Assembly: GCA_945928315.1 (NCBI GenBank)
Contig: CAMENN010000001.1
Span: forward strand, 142-64,141
Reading direction: 5' to 3'
Length of the DNA stretch: 64,000 nucleotides
Source: an uncultured Clostridia bacterium
GTDB lineage: Bacteria > Bacillota > Clostridia > Christensenellales > Aristaeellaceae
Numbering within the stretch: the stretch's first letter is position 1; the number at the start of each line of letters is the position of its first letter. This document shows positions 3,688-40,630 of this stretch, piece by piece. Position numbers and translations under genes: made by a program. The notes under the pieces are model-generated. The model was not told the origin of the DNA and ran no database searches. It saw nothing but the letters and a program-made list of their open reading frames with translations.

Positions 3688-4284
3688 ATGTTCATCGACG
3701 TATACGACTTTGACGGCACGATCTACGACGGGGATTCCACCGTCGATCTGGTCTTGTTCTGCCTGCGCCGCCACCCGGCGCTGCTCACCGGCCTGCCGGG
3801 CCTGCTGCCCAGGCTCGCGGGCGCGCTGACTGGCAGGATCAGCCTGACCGCGTTCAAGACGGCGCTCTTCACGCGCATGGCCACGCGCATCGACCTGGCG
3901 GCCGAATCGGAGCTGTTCTGGCTGGACGCGCGCACGCAGGCGAAGCTGGGCAAGTGGTTTCAGGATACGCCGCGCGACCTGCCGGTCGTGATCGCGTCGG
4001 CTTCGCCGGAGTTTGAGCTGCGCCACGCAGCGAAGCTGCTGGGCGTCGATACGCTCATCGGCACGCGGGCGAACGCGGAAACGGGCGAGCTGATTGGCAA
4101 GAACTGCAAGGGCGCGGAGAAGATCCGGCGCATCGGGGAGGCCATCGGGCCGTTCACGGTGCGGGCGATGTACACGGACAGCGTGAAGTCGGACGGGCCG
4201 CTGCTGGACATGGCGCAGGAGAAGTATCTCGTGCGCCACGGGAAGGTGCAGAAGCTGCCGGATGATTTCAAGGCCGGAAGATAA
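3688..4284 (+). CDS. HAD-superfamily hydrolase (HAD-IB-like)
   Basis: N-terminus MFIDVYDFDGTIYDGDS carries the DxDGT motif I. 198 aa. RBS GAGGAGG lies upstream. The TAA stop abuts repeat R1. Confidence 0.8.
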   Translation: MFIDVYDFDGTIYDGDSTVDLVLFCLRRHPALLTGLPGLLPRLAGALTGRISLTAFKTALFTRMATRIDLAAESELFWLDARTQAKLGKWFQDTPRDLPVVIASASPEFELRHAAKLLGVDTLIGTRANAETGELIGKNCKGAEKIRRIGEAIGPFTVRAMYTDSVKSDGPLLDMAQEKYLVRHGKVQKLPDDFKAGR

Positions 4285-4314
4285 GCGCGAAGCGAGGAAG
4301 GGAGTCTGGGGGAC

Positions 4315-4408
4315 CGGAGCCCACCGCGCCCTGTGGGCGATGAAGGTGGGCGGAGCGTCGGAAATCGCAAGGAGTGCCGCTTGCGGCACGACTATGCGAG
4401 TTTCCCGG
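4315..4408 (+). repeat. M2 sub-element, copy a
   Basis: CGGAGCC...TTTCCCGG interrupts the GGGGAC/GTCCCC hairpin of beta. Confidence 0.8.
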
Positions 4409-4440
4409 ACTCTGATCCCCAGGCTAGGGGTTTGGGGGAC

Positions 4441-4527
4441 CGGAACCCGCCGCCGCCAGTGGCGGATGAAGGCGAGTGGAGCGTCGGAAACGGAAAGGAG
4501 CGCTTGCACGACTATTCCGTTTCCCGG
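4441..4527 (+). repeat. M2 sub-element, copy b
   Basis: CGGAACC...TTTCCCGG interrupts the GGGGGAT-GAA-ATCCCCC hairpin. Confidence 0.8.
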
Positions 4528-4697
4528 TCTGAAATCCCCCAACGTTCCTATATCGCGAAGCGATCAAAGAAAAAAGTAGTCAGGGAGCGAAGCGTTACCT
4601 GACGGGGCTTAGCGCATAGCTGTAAAAACAGCCTCACCGCTTCGCACCCCTGTCGCGATTTTCCATGCAGGGCTGCGGCTATCATATTCATACGCAA

Positions 4698-4742
4698 AGG
4701 AAGGGCCAGGGGAGCGATATTCCCCGACCCTTCCTGTTTTTG
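4698..4742. terminator. Bidirectional intrinsic terminator between the convergent HAD and glgA genes
   Basis: AGGAAGGGCC...GACCCTTCCT stem followed by GTTTTTG. An A-rich run lies on the other side. Confidence 0.75.
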
Positions 4743-4761
4743 TATATTGATCGAATGCGCG

Positions 4762-6585
4762 TCACTTTCCCGGCGACAGCAGGTGCCGGATCTCAAAGCC
4801 CTTCGAGAGGTTGCCGCTCAGCTTGATCTGCCCGCTCAGGTAGAGCTTGTCCGTCGTCACGATGCCGCGGGCCATGTCCAGCAGGTTGTCAAACGAGCAG
4901 TCGATGAACGCCTCGGCCTGCGGGTGCGCCGTCGGCCGCACATACATGTTGCCGTCCGCAAACTCCACGTGCATCACGCCCTCCGTGCGCCCGTAGACGT
5001 GGATCTGGAAGATGCGGTGGAAGTCCTTGCGGTTGCGCTTGGCGTAGCGCGCCTTGTTGATGCGGTCGTTCTCCTCGTAGCAGTGGCGCAGCTGCTCAAA
5101 GGCGTCCTCGAACGGCACCTCGCCCGTGGCGACCATCTTGTTGCCGTCGGTGATGTCGTCGTACATTTCCTCGTAGGCGCGCGCGCTCTTGTCCCAGGAG
5201 AAGTCCTTCGTCATGCAGCGGTAGCGCAGGGTGTCGAACATCTGCTCGTTGCTGAAGTAGAGCTTGACCGCCTCGGAGACCGCCAGATACAGGTCCTTCG
5301 CCTGATAGTTGGAGAACGCGAAGCCGTCGCCCACGCCGTCGAAGTCCTTGTAGGCGCGCACGGAGTCCTTGAGGCCGCCCGTCTCATGCACGATGGGCAC
5401 GGTACCGTAGCGCATCGCCATCATCTGGGACAGGCCGCAGGGTTCAAAGCGCGAGGGCATCAGGTACATGTCCGCGCCGGCGAAGATCTTGCTGGCCATC
5501 GGCTCGTTGTAGGCGCTGGAGAAGCCCAGCTGTCCCGGCCAGTTTTCCTTCGCCCAGTTGAAATAATCGATGTATTGCTGGTCGCCCTGGCCAAAGACGA
5601 TGAGCTGCACGCCCATGTCCATGAGGCCCGGGAGAATCTGCTTGATCAGCTCGATGCCCTTCTGCTCGACCAGGCGCGCCACGGAGGCCAGCAGCGGCCA
5701 TTCCGGCTCATCGGAGAGGCCGAAGATCTTCTGGATCTCGCGCTTGCACAGCACCTTGCCGCTGCGGTCGTCCGGCGTGAAGTGATACGGGATCATCGGG
5801 TCATGCGAGGGGTCGTAGTGATCGACGTCGATGCCGTTGAGGATGCCGTAGAGCTTGCCGTCCACGATGTCGACGACGCCCTGCAGGCCGTGCGCGTAGT
5901 AGGGATAGTGCAATTCGCGCGCGTAGGTCGGGGAGACGGTGGAAACGGCGTCGGCCATGAGCATGGCGCCCTTCATGAGGTTGATGTCGTGGCGGCCCTG
6001 ATACTCATAGCCCAGACCGCCGTCGTACCAGCCCTCGGGCAGGGCGAAGACGTCCTTCATCTCGGACTTGCCGAACTGGCCCTGATAGGCGATGTTGTGG
6101 ATGGTATAGACGGTCTTGATGGGCTTGAGCTCGTCGCGCAGAACCATGTCGTTCTTGAGGTAGATGATGGCGAGGGCGGTCTCCCAGTCGTTGCAGTGGA
6201 GGATCTGCGGCATGAAGTCGAGGTCGCCGAGCAGGTCGATGACGGCGCGGCAGAAGAACGCGAAGCGCAGCGAGTCATCGCCATAGCCATACAGGCGCGG
6301 GCGATGGAAAAAGTGCTCATTCTCGACGAACCAGACGGTGACGCCGTTCAGCTCGCCGCGAAAGAGGGCGCAGGGCATGACGCGCTGCCCGAGGCGCACC
6401 TGGCACTCCTTGACCTTCGTGAGCGTATCGCCGTAGCTTTCGCGGGTGCACTGATAGAGCGGCACGATGGTGGCGATCTCATCGCCGGCCTTTTTGAGTG
6501 CCGGCGGCAGGGAGAAGGCGACGTCCGCCAGGCCGCCGGACTTGCTGAAGGGTGCGCATTCGCTGGTCACAAACAGGATTTTCAT
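4762..6585 (-). CDS. glgA: Glycogen/starch synthase (GT5) with C-terminal SCP2-like extension
   Basis: MKILFVTSECAPFSKSGGLADV carries the KSGGL motif. Start set at ATG 6585 (RBS AAGGGG); the track ORF extends 25 codons further upstream. The last ~125 aa (...LYLSGQIKLSGNLSKGFEI...) look SCP2-like. Confidence 0.9.
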   Translation of the reverse strand: MKILFVTSECAPFSKSGGLADVAFSLPPALKKAGDEIATIVPLYQCTRESYGDTLTKVKECQVRLGQRVMPCALFRGELNGVTVWFVENEHFFHRPRLYGYGDDSLRFAFFCRAVIDLLGDLDFMPQILHCNDWETALAIIYLKNDMVLRDELKPIKTVYTIHNIAYQGQFGKSEMKDVFALPEGWYDGGLGYEYQGRHDINLMKGAMLMADAVSTVSPTYARELHYPYYAHGLQGVVDIVDGKLYGILNGIDVDHYDPSHDPMIPYHFTPDDRSGKVLCKREIQKIFGLSDEPEWPLLASVARLVEQKGIELIKQILPGLMDMGVQLIVFGQGDQQYIDYFNWAKENWPGQLGFSSAYNEPMASKIFAGADMYLMPSRFEPCGLSQMMAMRYGTVPIVHETGGLKDSVRAYKDFDGVGDGFAFSNYQAKDLYLAVSEAVKLYFSNEQMFDTLRYRCMTKDFSWDKSARAYEEMYDDITDGNKMVATGEVPFEDAFEQLRHCYEENDRINKARYAKRNRKDFHRIFQIHVYGRTEGVMHVEFADGNMYVRPTAHPQAEAFIDCSFDNLLDMARGIVTTDKLYLSGQIKLSGNLSKGFEIRHLLSPGK

Positions 6586-6682
6586 CGGGATAGCCCCTTT
6601 CATGAAAATGATATGCATCTGTGTGGATATGACGAGGGGCTGACGCGCCGGTTCGCGCATCAGCCGGGTTTGCTATGATTCA

Positions 6683-6883
6683 CCGTCAGGTAACGCTTCG
6701 CTCCCTGACTGCTTTCTTTTTTGGATCGCTTCGCGATGGGGTACGTTGGGGGCCTTGTCCGGGGAACTCGCATAGTCGCGACGCAAGCGTCGCTCCTTGC
6801 GATTCCCGACGCTCCTCCCACCTTCATTGCCCACAGGGCGCGGTGGGCTCCGGTCCCCCAGACCCCTTCTTCGCTTCGCGCGG
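6683..6883 (-). repeat. Composite hairpin repeat R2 (reverse complement: alpha - M2 - short beta - gamma)
   Basis: Reverse complement of 6683-6883 is colinear with R1. M2 copy c is at 6759-6853. Confidence 0.9.
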
Positions 6884-6929
6884 TTTAAGGGGTTTTAATT
6901 CCATAACCCTCTCCCCCGCATGAAGCCGA

Positions 6930-12169: not shown

Positions 12170-12306
12170 CCGCGCGAAGCGAGGAAGGGGGTCTGGGGAC
12201 TGGTCCCCAGGCTAGGGGTTTGGGGGATGAAATCCCCCAACGTCCCCCCTATCGCGAAGCGATCCAAAAAGAAAGCAGTCAGGGAGCGAAGCGGGACCTG
12301 ACGGGG
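12170..12306 (+). repeat. Composite hairpin repeat R4 (alpha - beta - gamma, no insertion; archetype)
   Basis: Nearly identical by eye to 36514-36643. Confidence 0.92.
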
Positions 12307-12343
12307 ACTCCCCGCAGACCCCCGCTCCATCCGCTGAACACAC

Positions 12344-12380: not shown

Positions 12381-12551
12381 CATGCCATATAGGGAATTGC
12401 GTCAAAGCGTCGTACGGCGAGCACCGGGAGACAGTACTTGACCAAGCTGTTCGGAAGTGGGGGGTGGGCACGGCCCGCTTTGCCCGTTTTCGTCTCTTCT
12501 GCTCAAAGATTCCCTTAAAAATACTGTGACTTTTTCCAAGAACTTTTCCTC

Positions 12552-12580: not shown

Positions 12581-12604
12581 ATAATTAGTATTTTGTCACC
12601 CTTC

Positions 12605-12894
12605 ATACTATTCTCACTCAATTCGAACCTTCAGAAAACTCCCCGTCAGGTAACGCTTCGCTCCCTGACTACTTTTCTTGGATCGCTTCGCGTTAATGGA
12701 TACGTTGGGGGATTTCATCCCCCAACCCCCTAGCCTGGGACCGAAGCCTGCCGCCGCCAGTGGCGGATGAAGGCAGGCGGAGCGTCGGAAATCGCAAGGA
12801 GTGCCGTTCACGGCACGACTATGCGAGTTTCCCGGGGTCCCCGGACCCCTTTCTCGCTTCGCGCCCATAGCTCGTCTTTATGTGAGAATAGTAT
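12605..12894 (-). repeat. Composite hairpin repeat R5 with 13-bp flanking inverted repeats
   Basis: Gamma, beta and alpha are reverse-complemented (12641-12866), while M2 copy d (12741-12835) is on the + strand. ATACTATTCTCAC (12605-12617) is the inverse of GTGAGAATAGTAT (12882-12894). Confidence 0.88.
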
Positions 12895-12919
12895 CACCGC
12901 GTCAAGGAGGTATGCCCCT

Positions 12920-18032: not shown

Positions 18033-18157
18033 AGCTTTCAGAAAATTCCCCGCCAGAGCTCGCTTCACGATAGGGGGGCGCTGGGCTGCCGCCCAGACCT
18101 GCCTGGGGACATTGTCCCCAGCCCCCTTCTTCGCTTCGCGCTGCGTAAAGCAATTAG
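18033..18157 (-). repeat. Delta-type repeat R6 (shortened)
   Basis: TGGGCTGCCGCCCA, CTGGGGACATTGTCCCCAG, CCCCCTTCTTCGCTTCGCGCTGCGTAAAGCA. Lies between the PMI-like stop and the NamZ-like start. Confidence 0.8.
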
Positions 18158-18169
18158 GCAGGAGTCCGG

Positions 18170-29505: not shown

Positions 29506-30636
29506 CTACAAAATCCCCTTTTCCCGGCAAAAGCGCAGGAACTCGAGCAGGTCGGAGGTGTGCGCGCAGCGGGCGATGTTCATCAGCCGTTTCTTGCGGT
29601 ACTGCAGCGCGGAGGCGGTCAGAAACAGCGTCTGCTCGAGCTTTTCCAGCGAGCAGCCGGCCAGCAGCCCCGAAAGCAGGCGCATGTCCAGCTCGTCCGC
29701 GGCGCTGAGCAGCGTCTCCGCGCGCAAAAGACGCTCGGCCTCCGGGTCGTTGTAGAAATTGATGGAGGATTCGAACGCGTCGGCGTCGTCCTCTGGCAGG
29801 GTGATGCTGGTCATGTCCGGCATGCAGGCGGTGGAGCCGCGCACGATGAGCTTGCTGCGCACGCGCGCGGAGACGCTCGCCGTGGAGGGCTGGCGGCACA
29901 GGTGGGAAAAGAGCAGCACCGCCTGGCGGCCCAGCTCCCGGTGATCGAGCGTGGCGATGGTCAGCGGCGGATCGACCCGCGCGGCGATGAGCGAATCGCC
30001 GAACGCCGTGACGAACAGGTCCTCCGGCACGCGCACGCCGTCCGCGCGCAGATGGCTGAGCAGCGACACCGCGGCGATGTCGTTGGCGCAGATGACCGCG
30101 TCAAACTGGCGCACGCGCGGGCGCATCCGGGCATAGCAGGCGGACAGGTCCGCATAGTTGAAGAAGACGCGCTCCTCCGCGCTGTAGCCGCGGTTTTTGC
30201 ACCAGTTGCTGAAAAAACGCAGCTTGATGTTGTCCGCCGAGGAGTTGGGGTTGTAGCCGTAGAGCGCGATGCGCCTGCGCCCGCAGCTGCTCAGGTAGGC
30301 GAGCAGATGGCTGATGGCGCCCACATAGTCCATGCGCACCATGCCGGCGGGCAGCGTCGTCTCCGAGGGATCGAAGCTGATGAACACGGACTCGATGCTG
30401 CGGGAATTGAAGAACGCCAGCGCGCCCGGCATCCAGGAGACGGACGTGCCGATGACGATGAGCATGCGCCGCTCGTCGCCGAAGAGGCGGTCGTAGTCGA
30501 TGGTCTTGTAGGCCTCCGCGTCGAGCGTCACGGTCTTGTATTTGCGCCGCGCCGCCTCCTGCGCCACGCCCTCCATCGTCTGCGCGGCCCAGAGGTAGCT
30601 GCGGAAATTCGGCTCCGTCAGCACGGGGATCAGCAC
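29506..30636 (-). CDS. Regulator with an N-terminal LacI-type sugar-binding (PBP) domain and a C-terminal HTH
   Basis: Start set at GTG 30636 (RBS AAGAGGTGAG). ANDIAAVSLLSHLRADGVRVPEDL... is a Peripla_BP-like core. The C-terminus LLSGLLAGCSLEKLEQTLFLTASALQYRKKRLMNIA looks GerE/LuxR-like. Confidence 0.6.
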   Translation of the reverse strand: MLIPVLTEPNFRSYLWAAQTMEGVAQEAARRKYKTVTLDAEAYKTIDYDRLFGDERRMLIVIGTSVSWMPGALAFFNSRSIESVFISFDPSETTLPAGMVRMDYVGAISHLLAYLSSCGRRRIALYGYNPNSSADNIKLRFFSNWCKNRGYSAEERVFFNYADLSACYARMRPRVRQFDAVICANDIAAVSLLSHLRADGVRVPEDLFVTAFGDSLIAARVDPPLTIATLDHRELGRQAVLLFSHLCRQPSTASVSARVRSKLIVRGSTACMPDMTSITLPEDDADAFESSINFYNDPEAERLLRAETLLSAADELDMRLLSGLLAGCSLEKLEQTLFLTASALQYRKKRLMNIARCAHTSDLLEFLRFCREKGIL

Positions 30637-30969
30637 GGCGCCCTCACCTCTTTTCCCTCGTTTTTCCTGCTGCTTTGCTCTGTAAGTCCCTCTGCAAAGC
30701 CCCGGACTCGACTGCAAAGCAGCGGAACTTGCACCACTTGGTCGCAAATGCAGCCGGCATCATGCCGGTTTCCTGCGGTGATCCGCCCCCTATTGTACAC
30801 ATTTTCCGGCGGCTGTGCAATCCTTCCGGCGCTTTTGCCGCAAAATCCTTCCGTCCGCCCCGCCCCCGGCCGCCCAGCCGCGGAAACGGCCCGCTTCTGC
30901 CCGTTTTCCTCCCCGAAAAGCCGCCGCCGCGCGCCAACGATTCCGGGAAAAAATCCGCCGCCTTTTGCC

Positions 30970-30998
30970 TTGGCGCCCCCGCCGCCCGATGCTATACT
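30970..30998 (+). promoter_or_regulatory. Promoter of the DUF5107/TPR gene (conserved block, copy 1)
   Basis: TTGGCG, 17 nt, TGC-TATACT (extended -10). Confidence 0.6.
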
Positions 30999-31059
30999 GG
31001 GCGCAGAAGGCCCGTCCGTTTCCCCTCTGCCCGTTTGCTCAGCACAAGGAGGTCTGTTC

Positions 31060-34000
31060 ATGAATCCCGTCGCCGTCACCGATGAACTGCGCATGCTGCC
31101 CGCCTACGGCTTTCCGCCCGCCGAGGAGCTGCCCCTGTTCGCGGAAAACCGCATTCACCAGCGCTCCAGCGGCAACCCCTATCCCGCCAAGGCCGTGCTC
31201 ACGGTGGACAGGGCGCACCGCGGGGATCGCCCGTTCCGCGTGATCACGCTGGAAAACGAATACCTGCGCGTGGAGCTGATGCCCGAGCTGGGCGGACGCA
31301 TCTACGCCGCGCTGGACAAGCGCACCGGCTACGACTTCTTCTACAAGCAGCATGTCGTCAAGCCCGCGCTCATCGGCCTGCTGGGCAGCTGGGTCTCCGG
31401 CGGCGTGGAGTTCAACTGGCCCTGCCACCACCGCCCCAGCTCGTTCATGCCGGTGGACGTGTCCATCGAGCGCGAGGAGGGCGGCGCCGTGACCGTCTGG
31501 ATGAGCGAAAACGAGCCGCTCGACCGCATGAAGGGCATGGTCGGCGTGCGTCTGGCCCCCGGCGAGGCGCGGCTGGATACCCGCATGCGCGTCTACAACC
31601 GCACGCCCGCGCGCCATTCCTTCCTGTGGTGGGAGAACGCCGCCGTGCCGGTCAACACGGACTACCGGCTGATCTTCCCGCCGGACGTGTCCTACGTCCA
31701 GTTCCACTACCGCAAGAACGTAACGGGCTATCCCGTCGCCTCCGGCGTGTACAACGGCATCCGCATGGGCGAGGGAACCGACATCTCCTATCACAAAAAC
31801 ACACACCAGCCCACGTCCTACTTCTGCGCCGAGACGAAGTATGACTTCTTCGGCGGCTACGACGAGGGCCGCCGCTGCGGCGTCATTCACGTCGCGGACC
31901 ACACCGTCTCCGTCGGCAAGAAGATGTTCACCTGGGCATACAACCAGCTCTCGCGCAGCTGGGAGCGCGCCCTCACCGACACGGACGGCCCCTATGCCGA
32001 GCTGATGGCCAGCTCCTATTCGCTCAACCAGCCGGACTTCGCCTGGCTCATGCCCTACGAGGGCCGCGAGTTCAGCCAGATGTGGTATCCCGTCGGGGGC
32101 ATCGGCCTGCCGCTGTGCGCCTGCCGGGAGGCCGTGCTCTCCGCGGAGAGCGGCCGTCTCGCCCTCGAGGCGACCGTGCCGCTTGAAAACGCGTCGCTCT
32201 GCGTCAACGGCGGGGAGCCGGTGCGCTTTTCTGCCTCGCCGGAGGCGGGCTTTGCCCTGCCGTTTGACGGGGAGCTGCGCGCATTCACGCTGCGCGACGC
32301 CGGCGGCCGCGTGCTGCTGCGCTACGAAAAGCCCGCCGCGCAGGCCGTGCGGCCGATGCCCGACACCCTGCCCGACAACCCGACGCTCGACGCGCTGCAC
32401 ACGGCGCAGGAGCTGTACCTGGCGGGCGTGCACGCGCAGCAGTACCGCGACCCCGCGACCGATCCCGCCGCCTACTGGCGGGAGGCCGTGCGCCGCGACC
32501 CGGAGTACGTGCCCGCGCTGACGGCGCTGGCGGAGGACGAGCTGCGCCATTTCCGCCCGGAGGCCGCGCTCAGCTATGCGATGCGTGCCTGGAAGAAGGT
32601 CACGATGCGCAACTTCCACCCGGAGAGCGGGCAGCTGCCGTACGTCATCGCGCGGATTCATGAGGCGCTGGGCGAGGACGGCGAGGCGTACGAATGGTAT
32701 ATGCAGGCCGCGTGGGCGCAGGACAGCCGCAGCCGCGCGCTCACCCGCGCGGCGATGCTGCGCGGACGCGCCGGGGACCGGCCCGCCATGGCGGAGCTGG
32801 CGCGCGAGGCGCTTGCCGAGCACGCGCGCAACGAGACGGCCGTCCTCGCGCTGGCCGTGGCGCTGGGGGACGATCCCGCCGCGCAGGACGGGGTGCTGCG
32901 CCGCCTGGAGGCCTACGACCGCCTGAACCCGGCCTGCCGCGCGCTGCGTCTGGGCGCTTCGCCCGAATTCTACGCGGGGCTGGGCGCGGACGCCTGCCAG
33001 ACCGTGCTGGACGTCTGCGAGGAGCTTTCGCTGATGGGCGAGACGGCCCTCGCCGCGCAGCTACTCCGTGGCCTGCCGCAGAAGACCGCGCAGACGGAGT
33101 ATGTGCGCGCGTACCTGACCGGCGACGACGGCGCGCTCCATGCCGCCGCGGGGCTGGGCACAGGCGTCGCCTTCCCCAGCCGGGCGATCGAGCTGCGCGC
33201 GCTGCAAAGCGCCGTGGCGAAGGCGCCGGGCGACGCGAACGCCCGCGGTCTGCTGGCCTGCCTGCTCTACGCGAACGGCCACCACGACGAAGCCGCCGCG
33301 CTCTGGGAGGAGGCCGCCGCGCTCGACCCGGAGAACCCCGCGCACCCGCGCAACCTGGCCGTCGCTTCCTATAGCCACCTCGGCCGCAGGGAAGAGGCCC
33401 TGCCGCTGCTGCGCCGCGCGCTCGCGCTGCATCCGCACGACGGGCAGCTCATCTTCGAGACGGCGCACGTCATGCTGCGCACGCATCAGCCGCCGCAGGA
33501 GGTGGCCGAGCTGCTCGCCGCGGAGAACTGCCCGCGCGAGGACGTGCGCATCGAGCACTGCCGCGCGCTCAACCTGTGCGGGCGATACGAGGAGGCGCTC
33601 TCGCTGATGCTGGCCGCGCCGTTCACCCCGTGCGAGGGCGGCGAGCACGCCGTCGCCGCGCAGTACATGTTCGCGCATCACGCGCTGGGGCGCAAAGCCC
33701 TCGCCGCGGGCAACGTGCAGGGCGCGCTTGCGCACTTCACCGCCGCCAAGACGCTGCCGGAGAGCCTGGGCGCGGGCCTGTGGAACGCGGTGCTGCTCGT
33801 GCCGCACCGCCATTATGAGGCCGTCTGCCTGCGGGCGCTGGGCCGCGGGGACGAGGCCGACGCCATCTGGACGGAGATCCTCTCGATTCAGAAGGACTAC
33901 TTCACCGACATGAACCTGCCCGAGCTGCCCTGCTGGCAGGCGATGGCCTGCCGGGCGCTGGGCCGCGATGCGCAGGCGCAGGCGCTCATCGCCGCGCATG

Positions 34001-34227
34001 TACGCGCGCAGGAGGCCGCCGCCCGCGCCGTCTGCCCGGGCTGGGCGGGCACCACGCCGTTCTTCCTCTCCTACATGGAGGACCCGCAGACCGTGCGCCG
34101 GGGCGCGCGGCGCTGGCAGCTGGCCATGGCGCATTTCGCCGCGGGCGACACCGGCGCCGCCGCGCAGCTCGCGCGCGAGGCGCTTGGCGACGATCCCGTG
34201 AATCTCTATGCGACGCTGATGATCTGA
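31060..34227 (+). CDS. DUF5107-like (aldose-epimerase-fold) protein with C-terminal TPR repeats
   Basis: True start is ATG 31060 (RBS AAGGAGG 31046-31052). The 1555-aa track ORF is extended upstream by an antisense open frame. The C-terminal half is Ala/Leu-rich and TPR-like. Confidence 0.7.
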   Translation: MNPVAVTDELRMLPAYGFPPAEELPLFAENRIHQRSSGNPYPAKAVLTVDRAHRGDRPFRVITLENEYLRVELMPELGGRIYAALDKRTGYDFFYKQHVVKPALIGLLGSWVSGGVEFNWPCHHRPSSFMPVDVSIEREEGGAVTVWMSENEPLDRMKGMVGVRLAPGEARLDTRMRVYNRTPARHSFLWWENAAVPVNTDYRLIFPPDVSYVQFHYRKNVTGYPVASGVYNGIRMGEGTDISYHKNTHQPTSYFCAETKYDFFGGYDEGRRCGVIHVADHTVSVGKKMFTWAYNQLSRSWERALTDTDGPYAELMASSYSLNQPDFAWLMPYEGREFSQMWYPVGGIGLPLCACREAVLSAESGRLALEATVPLENASLCVNGGEPVRFSASPEAGFALPFDGELRAFTLRDAGGRVLLRYEKPAAQAVRPMPDTLPDNPTLDALHTAQELYLAGVHAQQYRDPATDPAAYWREAVRRDPEYVPALTALAEDELRHFRPEAALSYAMRAWKKVTMRNFHPESGQLPYVIARIHEALGEDGEAYEWYMQAAWAQDSRSRALTRAAMLRGRAGDRPAMAELAREALAEHARNETAVLALAVALGDDPAAQDGVLRRLEAYDRLNPACRALRLGASPEFYAGLGADACQTVLDVCEELSLMGETALAAQLLRGLPQKTAQTEYVRAYLTGDDGALHAAAGLGTGVAFPSRAIELRALQSAVAKAPGDANARGLLACLLYANGHHDEAAALWEEAAALDPENPAHPRNLAVASYSHLGRREEALPLLRRALALHPHDGQLIFETAHVMLRTHQPPQEVAELLAAENCPREDVRIEHCRALNLCGRYEEALSLMLAAPFTPCEGGEHAVAAQYMFAHHALGRKALAAGNVQGALAHFTAAKTLPESLGAGLWNAVLLVPHRHYEAVCLRALGRGDEADAIWTEILSIQKDYFTDMNLPELPCWQAMACRALGRDAQAQALIAAHVRAQEAAARAVCPGWAGTTPFFLSYMEDPQTVRRGARRWQLAMAHFAAGDTGAAAQLAREALGDDPVNLYATLMI

Positions 34228-34246: not shown

Positions 34247-34288
34247 GGAGCGCACAGCCCTTCCCGAGCCGTGCGCTCCAAGGTTTTC
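34247..34288 (+). terminator. Hairpin after the DUF5107/TPR gene (weak U tract)
   Basis: GGAGCGCAC...GTGCGCTCC followed by AAGGTTTT. Confidence 0.5.
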
Positions 34289-34313
34289 CCGAAAAAATCC
34301 GCCGCCTTTCGCC

Positions 34314-34342
34314 TTGTGACCCCCATCGCGCAATGCTATACT
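34314..34342 (+). promoter_or_regulatory. Promoter of the second GH-like gene (conserved block, copy 2)
   Basis: TTGTGA, 17 nt, TGC-TATACT. The surrounding ~65 nt match 30943-31010. Confidence 0.6.
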
Positions 34343-34425
34343 GAGCACAGAAACCGCGCCCGCGCCGCGGATACGGCATGCCGCCCGGGCAAGCAGAGCG
34401 CCATCAGGAAAGAGAGGAATCCATC

Positions 34426-36483: not shown

Positions 36484-36513
36484 TACTGATTTCATTCCGA
36501 ATTGCTTTCCTAA

Positions 36514-36682
36514 GCGCGAAGCGAAGAAGGGGTCTGGGGACTGATCCCCAGGCTGGGGGGTTGGGGGATGAAATCCCCCAACGTTCCCATATCGCGAAGC
36601 GATTCAGAAAAAAGTAGTCAGGGAGCGAAGCGTTACCTGACGGTCGGTTTTCGAACAGCTCGGCTTTATTTGAGAATAGTAT
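36514..36682 (+). repeat. Composite hairpin repeat R7 (alpha - beta - gamma - epsilon)
   Basis: Colinear with R4. Ends with TGAGAATAGTAT (36671-36682). Confidence 0.92.
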
Positions 36683-36775: not shown

Positions 36776-39700
36776 TCAATCCGCCGTCATGTGCAGCAGC
36801 ATGGAGCCCATATAGTCAAGGTCCATGCCCTCCTGCGTCGGCGTGAGCAGCATCGGGGTGCCGTAGTAGTCCAGCGTGAGCGTGCCGTCCCCGTTATCGC
36901 TCCACCTGAGGGCCGGAACCGGCACGTTCACCATCACGAAGTCCGCCGTGCCGTCCGCGTGCAGCGTGACCGCATACTCGCCGCCCAGGTTCGCAGCCGG
37001 CATCGTGTAGCCGCTGACCTCCGCCGTGCGCGCGATGAACTTTCGCTCCAGATACGCGCCGTCTACAGTGACCGGCGCAGCCGGGGCCGCAGGCTCAGGA
37101 ACGGGAGCCGCAACGTCCGGTGCAGAGGCGCTTTCCTCCGGCGCCCAGTCCGCGTCCTCGTCCCGGCTGAACATCATGTAGCCACCCAGCTGCGTGCCGT
37201 ACTGCATGAAGCCGCCGTTCAGCAGCGTGAGCACCATTCCCACGCCGTCGGCGCTCTCGCCGACGTACACGTTGCCCGTCTCCTCATCCTGATACCAGAC
37301 CTGCGGCGTGGCACCGGCATAGTCGAGCGCACCGGTGCCGTCCGCGTCGAGCGTCAGCGTGATGCGCAGGCCCAGCGTGCGCGGATCGCCCGTCAGCCCG
37401 CCGGTGGACAGATACACCGCGTGCCAGGTGCCCACATAGTCAAGCAGCCCGTCGCCCACGGTCTGCGGGCCATCCGGGAGATTCGGGGAGGCCGGAGCCT
37501 CGCCCGCCTCGCCGCGCACGAAGTAGACCCTGTCGCCCTCGTCGTCCATGCACAGCTCACCTTCCGCCGTCATCACCATGAGCGTGCCGTCAAGGTCGCA
37601 CGCGCCGTCCACATACGTCCACGTGGACGTGTCCTCCTCGCCGAACGAGAACAGCGTTGCCGTGCCGTCCTCGCCCAGCGTCAGCGTCATTTCAAATCCA
37701 AGATCGGCGACGTTCAGGCGCATGCCCTCGGTCTCCATCACGGTCGCCGTCCACGTGCCCACGAAGTCCTCAAAGGACGCATAGACCGTCTCAAGCTCCG
37801 CACCGGCGGGCTCCGGGGCGCTGGGCGTATAGCTCTCGGCGGAGGTGAAGATCATCTTCGACTCGCCGTCATCCATGCAGAGCGTGCCGTCCTCGCCGAG
37901 CGTGATCGCCGTGCCCTCCACAAAGGCCACGCCGTCCTGCACATTCCATGTGCCAAGCTCCTGCTCGCCCGACATCGTCAGCTCGGCGGTGCCGTCCGCG
38001 TTCAGCGTCATCAGGAAGTCGAGTCCCAGCGCCACAGGATCGAGCGGCGTGCCCTCGAGCTCCATCTCCGTGCAGTACCAGCTGCCCACAAACGGCGCGC
38101 CGGCCTCGCCGACGGGCATCGCAGGCGCGGGCGTGGCGGTCGGCTCGGGCGTGGGCATCGGGGTGCTGCGGACCGCCGCAAGCAGCGCGGAGACGTCCGG
38201 CAGCTGCGCCGGGTTGGTCAGGCACGCCGCCTGCGCGAAGGCCTCCGTGCCGTCCATGTTCAGGAAGGCGTACTCGCTGATCTCCTGCGTGTACGCGCCC
38301 AGATAGACCGTCGTGAGGCTCTCGCAGCCGTCGAACACATAGCGGTCGAGGCTGCGCACGCCGTTCACGAACACGACCTCGCGCAGGCTCGTGCAGCCGG
38401 AGAACAGGCCCTCGGGCACCACATCGAGCGGCGCGTAGCAGACGACTGTCTCCAGCGTCTCGCAGTTCTGGAAGGCGTATGCCGAAAGCTCCGTGTACGT
38501 CTCCGGGATGACCAGCGAGCGCACGGGCAGCTCCACGTCGAAGTTGTCGCCATAGCTGGCGCGGGTCAACGCGTTGCCGCCGACCATCGTCAGCGCCACG
38601 CCGTCGATTTTGCGCGGGAGCACGAGGTTCAGCTCGTAGCCCTGATAGGCATCCAGCCGCGCATAGTCCTCGTCATACCAGAAGTCGTCGCCGTCCGTCT
38701 CCGCAAAGGGCATGACGGCAACCGTCGCGGGCGTCTCGCCCACGCGCGGCAGCGGGTCGTTCCAGGCGCGCCCGAGCTTCGCGCTCAGCGCGGCAACCTG
38801 CTCGCCCGTCGCGTCCGCCGCGGCGTAAACCTCGCCCACGCCCGCCAGCAGCGTCGTCGCGTCCTCCGGCAGTGCAGAGGCATCGCACAGCAGGGTCACT
38901 TTGGAAAGATTCGTGCAGCCGTCAAACGCGCCTGCCCCGATGCTCACGAGCGACGCCGGAAGCGTGATCTCCGTGATGCCCGTGCAGCCCGCGAACGCGC
39001 CCTCGCCGATGGTTTCAAGCGACGCCGGGAGCGCAAGCTCCGTGAGGTTCGTGCAGCCCGCGAACGCGCCGTCGCCGATCGTTGTGATGGAGCCGAACAG
39101 CTCCACATATTCGACGCTGCTGTCCGCGAACGCCTCGTTGCCGATCGTCGTGAACCAGCCGCAGTGATGCGGGTAGAAGGAGCGGATCGTCCGGTTGCCC
39201 TTGAACACGCCGTCGCCCAGCGCGGTGACGTTGATGTCGTCGTAGCCCGTCCAGACGGTCAGGTCGGGCGCGTCGCCGGTGTAGACCGTCCACACGCCGT
39301 TCTCAATGCGCGTCACGGACGGCTCGTTGACCGGGTACTCCGCCACGCCGGCATCCTCCGGGTTGCTGATCCAGACCGTGCAGTCCGGGCACTGCTCCGC
39401 CAGCAGCGCGGCATAGGCGTCGCGGACTTCAAACGAGCAGTCCCACGGCAGGTCGAGGTCCTCGACACACGTGTCCGCAAAGGCATCCGGCGCGATGTCG
39501 ACGGGCGCGTAGAGGTCGAACACCAGATAGTTCAGGCTGGTGCCCGCAAAGGCGCGGGAGCCGATGCGCTCCACGTTTTTGCCGAGGTACAGCTCCGAGC
39601 ACCACGCGTTTTCAAACGCGCTCTCGCCGATGACGCGCAGGGACTCCGGCAGCTCCAGCGCGTCGTTGTGGCGATTGTACACGAACGCGCGGTCGCCGAT

Positions 39701-40630
39701 CTCCTCAAGGCCCTCGTTCCACACGATCAGGCTGCCGGCAACGTTGTGGAACGCCTCCGCGCCGATGATGCGCAGCGTGGAGGGAAACACGATGTACTCG
39801 ATGTTGCACGCCTGACGGAACGCCTGCGCACCGATCGTTTCAAGCCCTTCCGGCAGAATCAGGCCGTAGATCGAATAATCGTTGCGCATCGCTTCCTCGC
39901 CGATGGCGCGCACCGGCACGCCGCCGATGCTCTCCGGGATGACGAGCCATGCGTCCATGCCGATATAGCTGGTGATTTCGCCCGTCTCCGCGTCGATCTC
40001 GAAGTCACTCTCCTCGATGGTGTCCTCCACGACGACGGCGTTTTGCCCGCTCGCGCGCAGGCGGCTTGCCGCGCCGTTCGCGTCCGCGAGCGCCGCCGCG
40101 TAGGCATCCATCTGGTCGTCCGGCACGACGATCACGCAGTCGTCCGGCAGCCAGTCAAACAGCCAGTCCGGCTGGTCAAACACCGGGCACTCGCCCAGGA
40201 AGCGCACCTCGCGCAGGCTCTCGCAGGAGCTGAACGAGCCGCTGACATAGCGCACGGACGCGGGCACCGTGACGCTTTCAAGCGACCTGCAGCAGTTGAA
40301 GTTGCTCGCGCCAATGACCTGCAAGCCTTCGGGCAGCGTCACGTCCGTCAGAGCGTCCATAAAGCTGACGACGCCCTGCTGCAGCGCGCGCAGCGTGTCA
40401 GGGAACGTGAGGCTGGTGACGTCGTGCTGGTTTTGCAGCTCGCCGCTGCCGATGGCGTTCACCAGGCAGCCGTCCACCTCGTCGGGCACGACGACATCGC
40501 CGCTGAGCGTGCCGTCGAGCTTCGCATACAGGTTGTAGGCATCGTAGCTCCATACGCCCTCCTCCGCCGGTGCGGGCAGTGCGAGCGCCAGCAGACACAG
40601 AACCGTCAGCAGCATGATGGTCTTTTTCAT
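36776..40630 (-). CDS. Secreted BspA-type leucine-rich-repeat protein with four C-terminal ~110-aa repeats
   Basis: Signal peptide MKKTIMLLTVLCLLALALPAPA. Many ...IGxxAFxxCxxL... LRR_5-type units. A Pro/Thr linker, then four FVG(S/T)W...DGT...-type modules. Confidence 0.85.
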   Translation of the reverse strand: MKKTIMLLTVLCLLALALPAPAEEGVWSYDAYNLYAKLDGTLSGDVVVPDEVDGCLVNAIGSGELQNQHDVTSLTFPDTLRALQQGVVSFMDALTDVTLPEGLQVIGASNFNCCRSLESVTVPASVRYVSGSFSSCESLREVRFLGECPVFDQPDWLFDWLPDDCVIVVPDDQMDAYAAALADANGAASRLRASGQNAVVVEDTIEESDFEIDAETGEITSYIGMDAWLVIPESIGGVPVRAIGEEAMRNDYSIYGLILPEGLETIGAQAFRQACNIEYIVFPSTLRIIGAEAFHNVAGSLIVWNEGLEEIGDRAFVYNRHNDALELPESLRVIGESAFENAWCSELYLGKNVERIGSRAFAGTSLNYLVFDLYAPVDIAPDAFADTCVEDLDLPWDCSFEVRDAYAALLAEQCPDCTVWISNPEDAGVAEYPVNEPSVTRIENGVWTVYTGDAPDLTVWTGYDDINVTALGDGVFKGNRTIRSFYPHHCGWFTTIGNEAFADSSVEYVELFGSITTIGDGAFAGCTNLTELALPASLETIGEGAFAGCTGITEITLPASLVSIGAGAFDGCTNLSKVTLLCDASALPEDATTLLAGVGEVYAAADATGEQVAALSAKLGRAWNDPLPRVGETPATVAVMPFAETDGDDFWYDEDYARLDAYQGYELNLVLPRKIDGVALTMVGGNALTRASYGDNFDVELPVRSLVIPETYTELSAYAFQNCETLETVVCYAPLDVVPEGLFSGCTSLREVVFVNGVRSLDRYVFDGCESLTTVYLGAYTQEISEYAFLNMDGTEAFAQAACLTNPAQLPDVSALLAAVRSTPMPTPEPTATPAPAMPVGEAGAPFVGSWYCTEMELEGTPLDPVALGLDFLMTLNADGTAELTMSGEQELGTWNVQDGVAFVEGTAITLGEDGTLCMDDGESKMIFTSAESYTPSAPEPAGAELETVYASFEDFVGTWTATVMETEGMRLNVADLGFEMTLTLGEDGTATLFSFGEEDTSTWTYVDGACDLDGTLMVMTAEGELCMDDEGDRVYFVRGEAGEAPASPNLPDGPQTVGDGLLDYVGTWHAVYLSTGGLTGDPRTLGLRITLTLDADGTGALDYAGATPQVWYQDEETGNVYVGESADGVGMVLTLLNGGFMQYGTQLGGYMMFSRDEDADWAPEESASAPDVAAPVPEPAAPAAPVTVDGAYLERKFIARTAEVSGYTMPAANLGGEYAVTLHADGTADFVMVNVPVPALRWSDNGDGTLTLDYYGTPMLLTPTQEGMDLDYMGSMLLHMTAD

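Follow-up and report, generated by a model that had tools for sequence, protein, structure and literature searches.

We analysed a 64-kb stretch of DNA from an uncultured Clostridia bacterium (contig CAMENN010000001.1 of assembly GCA_945928315.1; hereafter referred to as the window) and found that a structured unit of ~97 nt, hereafter M2, is a recently mobile, self-nesting and previously undescribed small element of uncultured gut Clostridia, on the theme of repetitive extragenic palindromes (REPs) and of IS200/IS605 insertion sequences. An earlier reading of the letters alone (the sequence-only reading) had proposed that M2 is a discrete mobile unit, non-autonomous and lodged in hairpins that belong to another repeat; this core claim was supported by the variety of its contexts, by polymorphism among strains and by recent copying. 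The window (GC = 65.6%) is ordinary chromosome of a spore-forming Clostridia metagenome-assembled genome (MAG) and is matched at 99.99% identity by a contig of GCA_019973115.1; its 46 open reading frames (ORFs) include germination proteins, ABC transporters, glycosidases and regulators.

Between its genes, the window carries ~9 copies of a modular host repeat, in which an alpha module (GCGCGAAGCGARGAAGGGG) is followed by one to three G-run/C-run hairpins (beta) and by a gamma module (GTAGTCAGGGAGCGAAGCGTTACCTGACGG), a GTAG-tagged palindrome. A covariance model of M2, scanned with cmsearch at every position and on both strands of the whole 64 kb with filters off, detected four copies only (89.6-118.1 bits, E = 6e-19 to 1e-25), alignable over ~99 nt with a unit length of 95-98 nt; the next-best match reached 16.9 bits (E = 0.06), and the four copies lie far beyond chance. 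M2a (4313-4409, plus strand; 115.3 bits over 4310-4408) and M2b (4439-4528, plus; 89.6 bits) are found in composite R1 (4285-4607, plus; repeat families D3, D5, I1, I9 and I11), which reads alpha (GCGCGAAGCGAGGAAGGGAG), beta1 with M2a, beta2 with M2b and gamma (GTAGTCAGGGAGCGAAGCGTTACCTGACGG at 4577-4607). M2a follows GGGGG in the beta1 hairpin, whereas M2b, a shorter variant whose P3b helix has just 3 bp, sits in the beta2 hairpin GGGGG^..TGAAATCCCCC (^ marks the insertion point); the filled hairpins span 4305-4421 and 4431-4540, respectively. M2c (6758-6854, minus; 107.2 bits) is a precise insertion in GGGGG^CAAGGCCCCC of the inverted composite R2 (6683-6886, minus; gamma, a single beta hairpin, alpha; inverted repeats I1, I5 and I9), and the empty counterpart of this hairpin, GGGGGCAAGGCCCCC, was found in strains L180 and L196. 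M2d (12740-12836, plus; 118.1 bits), which is 100% identical in L180, occupies the beta1 palindrome of a MITE (miniature inverted-repeat transposable element) and runs opposite to the host modules. Two host composites of the window are free of M2, namely 12170-12310 (plus), whose empty beta1 and beta2 provide a paralogous empty reference (GGGGACTGGTCCCC at 12195-12208; GGGGGATGAAATCCCCC at 12222-12238), and 36510-36681 (plus; GGGGACTGATCCCC at 36536-36549); paralogues empty at the M2b-type site lie at 12222-12238 and 36563-36579. All strings and coordinates that the sequence-only reading had given for M2 and for the empty hairpins were found again in the sequence.

Every clean comparison of a filled with an empty site delimited the same unit, 5'-ACCGR...CCGG plus one or two variable bases, between GGG and C. 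GGG precedes every M2 copy, mostly as TGGG or RGGG, and GGG^C was present in 6/6 clean empty sites, that is, in the strain alleles b and a described below and in five further comparisons with empty sites that are paralogous or in another genome (filled copies L188:187, L147, L014, the outer copy in L195, and M2c, with its empty sites in L180 and L196). For example, GTCAAGGGG^CACTGCCCCTTG received the block ACCGAAGCC...CCCCGGAT, TCTGGG^CGGCAGCCCAG received ACCG...CCCGGGT, CCAAAGGG^CGAYCGGAAAGCCCTTTGG received ACCGG...CCCGGAC, and GGGGG^CAAGGCCCCC received M2c. No target-site duplication was found in allele b versus a or in the five further pairs, and duplication of GG, GAC, GGAC or AC at the target was ruled out by the clean empty sites. 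The terminal inverted repeat of M2 is only 3-5 nt (ACC(G)/(C)GGT common to both ends); its hairpin domains start 7 nt from the 5' end and stop 4-6 nt from the 3' end. These comparisons moved the start two bases upstream of that given by the sequence-only reading. Of the site proposed in that reading (after GGGGGA or GGGAC in a hairpin loop), AC turned out to be part of M2, and the common target feature is the sequence GGG^C at or inside the stem rather than the loop itself.

Divergent flanks as proof of M2 autonomy were weakened by the finding that host hairpins swap even between orthologous loci; because of this, we relied on strain alleles instead. Contigs of other samples, 98-99.5% identical to the window, were compared in the spacer between the glycogen-synthase gene and the next gene, where R2 lies, and conspecific strains carried alleles with one, two (nested) or three M2 copies. 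Allele a (window, L209 and L213) has one M2, and allele b (L212) equals allele a plus a 98-nt M2, ACCGAAGCC...CTCCCCGGGT, placed between CCCTGTGGG and CRATGAAGG of M2c, inside the P2b hairpin of this resident copy. Comparison of CCCTGTGGG[98 nt]CGATGAAGG in allele b with CCCTGTGGGCAATGAAGG in allele a revealed neither a duplication nor a lost base. Allele c (L207, L208 and L210) has one further 126-nt hairpin-plus-M2 unit relative to allele b. Conspecific strains therefore differ by one precise M2, and M2 has been recently mobile; none of three alternatives weighed below (an RNA function, retro-mobility and enzyme-free recombination) explains the clean 98-nt difference as simply. A fourth arrangement at the glycogen-synthase locus was observed in L214 (3369-3801) and L181 (8710-8837), where an extra composite (alpha, hairpins and plus-strand M2) lies just upstream of the glycogen-synthase start; the window lacks it at 6620-6680.

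Whole M2-bearing composites were polymorphic as well. In conspecific strains, the spacer between the HAD gene and the glycogen-synthase gene is 71 nt long and consists of alpha and an empty CTGAGGGAC-AAT-GTCCCTCAG hairpin; window positions 4315-4765, with M2a and M2b, are absent from these strains, and identity ends at 4314, just past GGGAC. The MITE carrying M2d is missing from a related lineage (see below), and a third case of presence versus absence was found between two other species. Thus, the presence/absence polymorphism that the sequence-only reading had proposed as a check was observed for a single 98-nt M2 among conspecific strains and for entire composites. A search for empty sites via glycogen-synthase orthologues of 80-91% identity found synteny lost and no M2.

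Recent copying was further indicated by five 100% identical 99-nt copies at five loci of the JGI metagenome Ga0129315, two of which have flanks unrelated to those of the other three; identity among the five stops at GGGAC...CCCGG. M2 was located in at least seven hairpin contexts (beta1, beta2, GGGCGGCAGCCC, CAAGGGGCACTGCCCCTTG, CCAAAGGGCGAYCGGAAAGCCCTTTGG, the gamma palindrome and P2b of another M2), and additionally in a 5S-rRNA-like hairpin of Ca. Ventricola, rather than in the one fixed context that the sequence-only reading had named as counting against mobility. Nesting of M2 in M2 at the same P2b site occurred in two distant genomes, the window species and MAG SUG673, and apparent partial tandem copies in L185, L195 and SUG673 were resolved as M2 nested in M2.

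We next examined the fold in 64 M2 matches (56 distinct). Four helices, P2, P2b, P3 and P3b (in M2a, plus strand, 4319-4325/4345-4351, 4327-4331/4335-4339, 4360-4369/4395-4405 and 4375-4379/4384-4388), were paired in 96.3% of cells, and 20/30 pairs had changed on both sides. Shuffles reached the observed values in 0/500 cases on four of five measures and in 47/500 for the count of further pair types, and slid controls were 31-45% paired. RNAalifold on an independent MAFFT alignment recovered the same four helices, with compensatory changes at 17/25 pairs. Three window copies had fold z-scores between -2.8 and -3.9 (M2a, -3.6), and the fourth, M2b, had -1.6; both strands folded about equally. 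M2b has two pair-breaking substitutions, while its orthologue in L181 keeps both pairs and scores 99.6 bits. The stretches between the helices are purine-rich and invariant (GGAG, ATGAAGG, GGAGCGTC, AAGGAG and CGACTA). The fold of M2 is under constraint, and compensatory changes that span genera imply that it is needed in itself. A pseudoknot between GUC and GAC (J2/3 with the P3 internal loop) was unsupported, as both sides are invariant and degenerate copies alter one side. Several P3b loops read GAA or GCA; similarly, three GCGAAGC motifs (C-GAA-G triloop mini-hairpins, e.g., within 4285-4304, 4551-4565 and 4577-4607) are found in every host composite. The oligonucleotide d(GCGAAGC) forms an unusually stable DNA mini-hairpin, and these motifs would fit structures formed in single-stranded DNA.

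Orientation was not free. The sequence-only reading had M2 orientation independent of the host; both orientations do exist, but M2 runs in the same direction as alpha in 30 of the 38 copies near an alpha module, and the 8 opposite copies, M2d included, form one near-identical subfamily of the window species. The opposite orientation could stem from a single inversion between hairpin arms that then spread, and the agreement in 30/38 copies is expected if M2 and the host repeat both enter one DNA strand. With respect to neighbouring genes, 14 copies were sense and 9 antisense; this difference was not significant, and an orientation linked to transcription was rejected. Covariance scores were equally high for sense and antisense copies, which fits a requirement of mobility rather than a cis-acting RNA role.

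The host repeat is itself partly carried by a mobile element. The 288-nt MITE (12606-12893, minus; gamma, beta2, beta1 with M2d, alpha) has perfect 12-nt terminal inverted repeats, TACTATTCTCAC, at 12606-12617 and 12882-12893, as detected by a terminal-repeat search, and a 3-bp TCA duplication at 12603-12605 and 12894-12896, a TNA-type duplication that we take to be reminiscent of the IS5/IS1031 group. It is inserted in the 5' leader of a GNAT gene, with a promoter-like TACAAT on one side and the ribosome-binding site on the other, and is absent from 10 contigs of a 92-94% identical lineage, with the empty site TGTCACCCTTCAT|CGCGTCAAGG in L196-L204. The M2-free composite 36510-36681 has a single MITE terminal repeat at its end (36670-36681, 1 mismatch). 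In strains L180 and L196, the hairpins of composite 12170-12310 were replaced by other variants, and the same comparison, between strains 97-98% identical, at 12170-12310 and 18089-18160 revealed whole hairpins exchanged with compensatory arms (CTGGGGAC-TG-GTCCCCAG versus CTGAGGGAC-AAT-GTCCCTCAG; GGGGGATGAAATCCCCC versus GGGGGCAAGGCCCCC), together with a 30-nt gamma deletion and a 103-nt indel (window 12383-12485). The turnover of hairpin modules is much faster than that of the flanking genes.

Outside the window, ~60 more M2 copies were found, spread over a metagenome, a contig that resembles a prophage and other Clostridia MAG species, at least six in number. In a pattern scan of species-representative genomes, whose first pattern was too loose (~80/108 loci were chance matches), the M2-bearing MAG species among the matches listed, at least six, were two Ca. 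Ventricola, Clostridiales SUG673 (in which the alpha-M2-M2-gamma order of R1 recurs), Clostridia E09__bin164, RGIG9076 and SRR15057928_bin.15. Metagenome Ga0129315 represents a strain of the window species and has >20 copies. M2 is the only DNA still alignable between the window and the other genomes. It was also present in two IMG/VR contigs, one of which (L147 3187-3482, UViG_3300024269_002793) has M2 and host-type hairpins between ORFs that, on by-eye reading of their translations, are phage portal-like and large terminase subunit-like; a prophage could carry such repeats between species. Deposited plasmid and phage records gave no M2 match, and a full-text literature search for M2 sequence strings and GCGAAGC returned nothing relevant. 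Head-to-tail M2 arrays joined by CCCCGGAAGGAGCC were observed in E09__bin164 (L066 6487-6613, L083 1-127 and L039 1-112); their second unit lacks the first six bases, and all reach contig or locus ends. Metagenome contigs of these organisms often terminate in host repeats or M2 (e.g., L110 4825-4967 and the end of L111), and MAG copy numbers are underestimated because both repeats systematically fragment assemblies.

In Ca. Ventricola, M2 resides in truncated 5S-like units (L061 5700-6517 and L015 3900-4199, both minus). L061 has a true 5S rRNA gene (Rfam, 54 bits) followed by two truncated units. Both strands of helix I are retained in these units, as are GTACTTGG and a 28-nt match, without any difference, to the 3' end of 5S, with M2 replacing the expected helix IV loop in each. 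A terminator-like hairpin follows unit 1 and the similar L015 unit; the units may be pseudogenes or expressed RNAs. Rfam detected only 5S rRNA at the Ventricola loci.

How M2 moves can be approached through known systems. In the IS200/IS605 family, IS608 and ISDra2 have ends with subterminal hairpins, a fixed 5' flank and no duplication, and the hairpins of their two ends resemble each other. M2 resembles this family of single-strand "peel and paste" elements and its ORF-less derivatives (palindrome-associated transposable elements) in having no terminal inverted repeat, no duplication and a precise filled/empty difference, in inserting exactly 3' of a short fixed sequence outside the element (GGG, before C), and in a hairpin near each end that is kept through compensatory changes. 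It differs in its dissimilar domains, each with a conserved internal loop, in a 3' end that varies by 1-2 nt, in a target that is a G-run in GC hairpins, and in the absence of sequence similarity to known members; the IS605-associated RNA families of Rfam were unmatched. Like REPs, REPINs and bacterial interspersed mosaic elements (BIMEs), M2 is high-copy, intergenic, GC-rich and structure-conserving, occurs after genes and forms mosaics with other motifs. In contrast to the 20-40 nt palindrome with terminal GTAG/CGTC of REPs, M2 is 95-98 nt long with two distinct hairpins and the ends ACCGR and CCGGR, CGTC being only internal, before P3; unlike in REPINs, its two domains fold separately and are not mutually complementary. 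It is the host gamma module, not M2, that has a REP-type GTAG tag (GTAGTCAGG...CCTGAC).

A GTAG-tagged palindrome is a hallmark of REPs associated with RAYT transposases (PMC3733652), and Group 1 RAYTs have been reported in Clostridia (PMC5581495); because the REP-like host has this module, a Y1/RAYT enzyme in these genomes is pointed to. For T. roseum GTAG-23, nesting of REPs within small GC palindromes has been described (PMC3733652), and that survey makes no mention of Firmicutes or Clostridia, nor of self-nesting. M2 shares a preference for palindromic extragenic repeats with IS1397, ISKpn1 and the IS110-family elements IS621 and ISPpu10, but these are kilobase-sized and autonomous with their own transposase, whereas M2 has 97 nt, no ORF, and no duplication or core repeat. 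In the Ventricola units it resembles the intervening sequences of rRNA helices, as a structured block extending the stem of a host RNA gene; those, however, occur in rRNA genes only and are cut out by RNase III, whereas M2 is mostly in non-rRNA intergenic DNA and polymorphic at the DNA level. Integron attC cores (RYYYAAC ... GTTRRRY) were not found in the M2 consensus, whose context is ordinary chromosomal operons.

Taken together, these likenesses suggest that M2 may be non-autonomous and be mobilised in trans, in the form of folded single-stranded DNA, by an HUH/Y1 enzyme of the IS200/IS605-RAYT kind, a proposal to which we give about even credence. In this model, a unit of ~97 nt with two subterminal hairpin domains, P2/P2b and P3/P3b, would be excised as a folded single strand and pasted, or else copied in that form; the enzyme would be encoded outside M2 and would most probably be a tyrosine transposase of the HUH/Y1 type. 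Integration is precise and takes place at GGG^C, on the 3' side of a G-run; no duplication accompanies it, and M2 lacks terminal inverted repeats. Occupied sites lie nearly all in GC-rich hairpins of the REP/BIME-like host repeat, itself partly borne by a MITE with terminal inverted repeats, and the P2b hairpin of M2 also serves as a site, such that copies nest in copies. The data above establish M2 as a discrete unit with defined boundaries and target, inserted without duplication, polymorphic among strains and conserved in fold; both the enzyme class and DNA rather than RNA as the folded form are what we infer from these features.

Several findings weigh against this proposal. The sequence-only reading had called for a search for HUH/Y1 transposases, and no candidate emerged: Pfam assigned none of the 46 window ORFs to a Y1/HUH or DDE enzyme, to a serine or tyrosine recombinase or to a reverse transcriptase, and tblastn with IS200 TnpA and E. 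coli RayT queries gave only E >= 0.44 in the window plus 195 loci, a target of ~1.6 Mb, ~0.32 Mb of it from M2-bearing sources, with a small part of any M2-bearing genome covered. No multicopy protein was found beside M2 loci. The two domains do not resemble one another, the 3' terminus is ragged (CCGG followed by A, AC, AT, GT or T), and GGG^C is far too frequent in a 66% GC genome to explain the restriction of M2 to intergenic hairpins. The conserved unpaired stretches (GGAG, AUGAAGG, GGAGCGUC, AAGGAG and CGACUA) are purine-rich and look RNA-like, an attempt to assign the strand from wobble pairs was undecided (26 G.U versus 19 A.C), and the terminator-like ends of the Ventricola units suggest an expressed RNA.

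M2 might also represent a new class of structure-specific mobile element, which we regard as conceivable but doubtful: it might be a single-strand transposon whose enzyme, from a family so far unconnected with ends of this sort, would read a branched two-domain fold and target G-run/C junctions in hairpins, or a self-copying mobile structured RNA, catalytic or protein-recruiting, that enters hairpins including rRNA-like ones.

We consider it unlikely that M2 is instead a structured RNA domain (a protein platform, a processing or stability element, or a ribozyme) that is selected as RNA in untranslated regions and small RNAs, its polymorphism arising through ordinary recombination of the carrier repeats. 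Such a role would be in line with the strong covariation around invariant purine-rich loops, the three-way-junction fold with its low z-scores in three of four window copies, and the closing helix, in which 15/15 U.G pairs are wobbles on the M2 strand. It would also be in line with the positions of M2, given that 30/38 copies run in the direction of alpha, which mostly adjoins a stop codon (7/9 in the window), that M2d lies between TACAAT and the GNAT ribosome-binding site, and that the M2-bearing 5S-like units end in terminator-like hairpins. However, Rfam 15 yielded no match at gathering thresholds in the window, and over 4200-4700 even a threshold of E <= 10 brought up chance-level matches only; hammerhead, twister, hatchet, pistol, hairpin, HDV-like, riboswitch and IS605/omega-RNA candidates had no model match, and their core motifs were absent. 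M2 was not associated with particular genes, close relatives have empty orthologous sites, and antisense copies are as intact as sense ones and include the youngest, identical copies. Moreover, M2b gained its two pair-breaking changes at a neutral pace, and the precise entry of 98 nt into another copy without flanking homology is unlike recombination between repeats.

Recombination without dedicated machinery, by template switching, slippage, gene conversion or unequal crossing-over among GC-rich hairpins and with arm inversion for the opposite orientation, is quite unlikely in our view. Whole host hairpins were indeed swapped between 97-98% identical strains, the 126-nt unit that sets allele c apart from allele b has direct repeats at its edges, and the lone copy of L209 resembles a recombinant of two allele c copies. 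Inverted arms around M2 could flip it (8/8 opposite copies being one subfamily), and every 5' junction has G-run microhomology. Against this, the same 98-nt block with the same ends occupies at least seven unrelated hairpins sharing only GGG^C, the five identical copies lose identity exactly at the unit edges, and compensatory evolution across genera implies a need for the fold.

Movement through an RNA copy whose 5' end is fixed at GGGAC or AC and whose 3' ends vary by read-through, reverse-transcribed at a nick by the G-run with microhomology at the 5' junction, is improbable. This route would account for a constant 5' junction with G-run microhomology next to a 3' tail ragged by 0-4 nt, for two kinds of 5'-truncated copies (L043:1400-1492 and the E09 tandem units starting GGAGCC), and for M2 in the probably highly transcribed Ventricola units downstream of a 5S rRNA gene. 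On the other hand, the window has no reverse transcriptase, the clean allele pair represents a full-length, base-perfect insertion with no untemplated bases, and most of the youngest copies are antisense to the genes beside them. To our knowledge, retro-elements resembling short interspersed nuclear elements are essentially unknown in bacteria. Finally, a conventional MITE of a DDE transposon or an IS110-family derivative is very improbable, even though the ends ACCGG...CCGGT/A form an imperfect inverted repeat of 4-5 nt, AC stands at both ends in most copies, the host composite 12606-12893 is a true MITE with 12-nt terminal repeats and a TCA duplication, and the REP survey documents insertion sequences that target REPs (PMC3733652), because the inverted repeat of M2 is too short for a MITE (at least ~10 nt plus a duplication), its targets (GGG^CGGCAG, GGGG^CACTG and GGG^CRATG) have neither a duplication nor AC or any other core dinucleotide at the junction, and no full-length parent with M2 ends occurred among the M2-bearing loci.

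Two further repeat features of the window were noted. A 90-nt direct repeat (30929-31018 and 34273-34362, 78% identical) with a promoter-like TTGCC...TATACT precedes two paralogous genes (DUF5107/TPR and DUF6259), and the mechanically called ORF 29560-34227 is probably two genes because this repeat fronts both paralogues. At 36776-40630 (minus), a 1284-aa BspA-type leucine-rich-repeat protein contains several internal DNA repeat families, including a 69-nt tandem at 38912-39049.

How small palindromic repeats spread and are recognised is an old question. The window species offers a natural series of alleles with 0, 1, 2 (nested) or 3 M2 copies at one locus in strains ~99% identical, which makes REP-like mobility directly testable, as is rarely possible. 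With its defined ends, GGG^C target and constrained fold, M2 is ideally suited as a substrate in a search for the enzyme responsible, and it is a candidate source of a compact activity that inserts DNA as directed by sequence and structure. In abundant gut Clostridia, M2 and its host repeats remodel the untranslated regions of ordinary genes on both the 5' and the 3' side.

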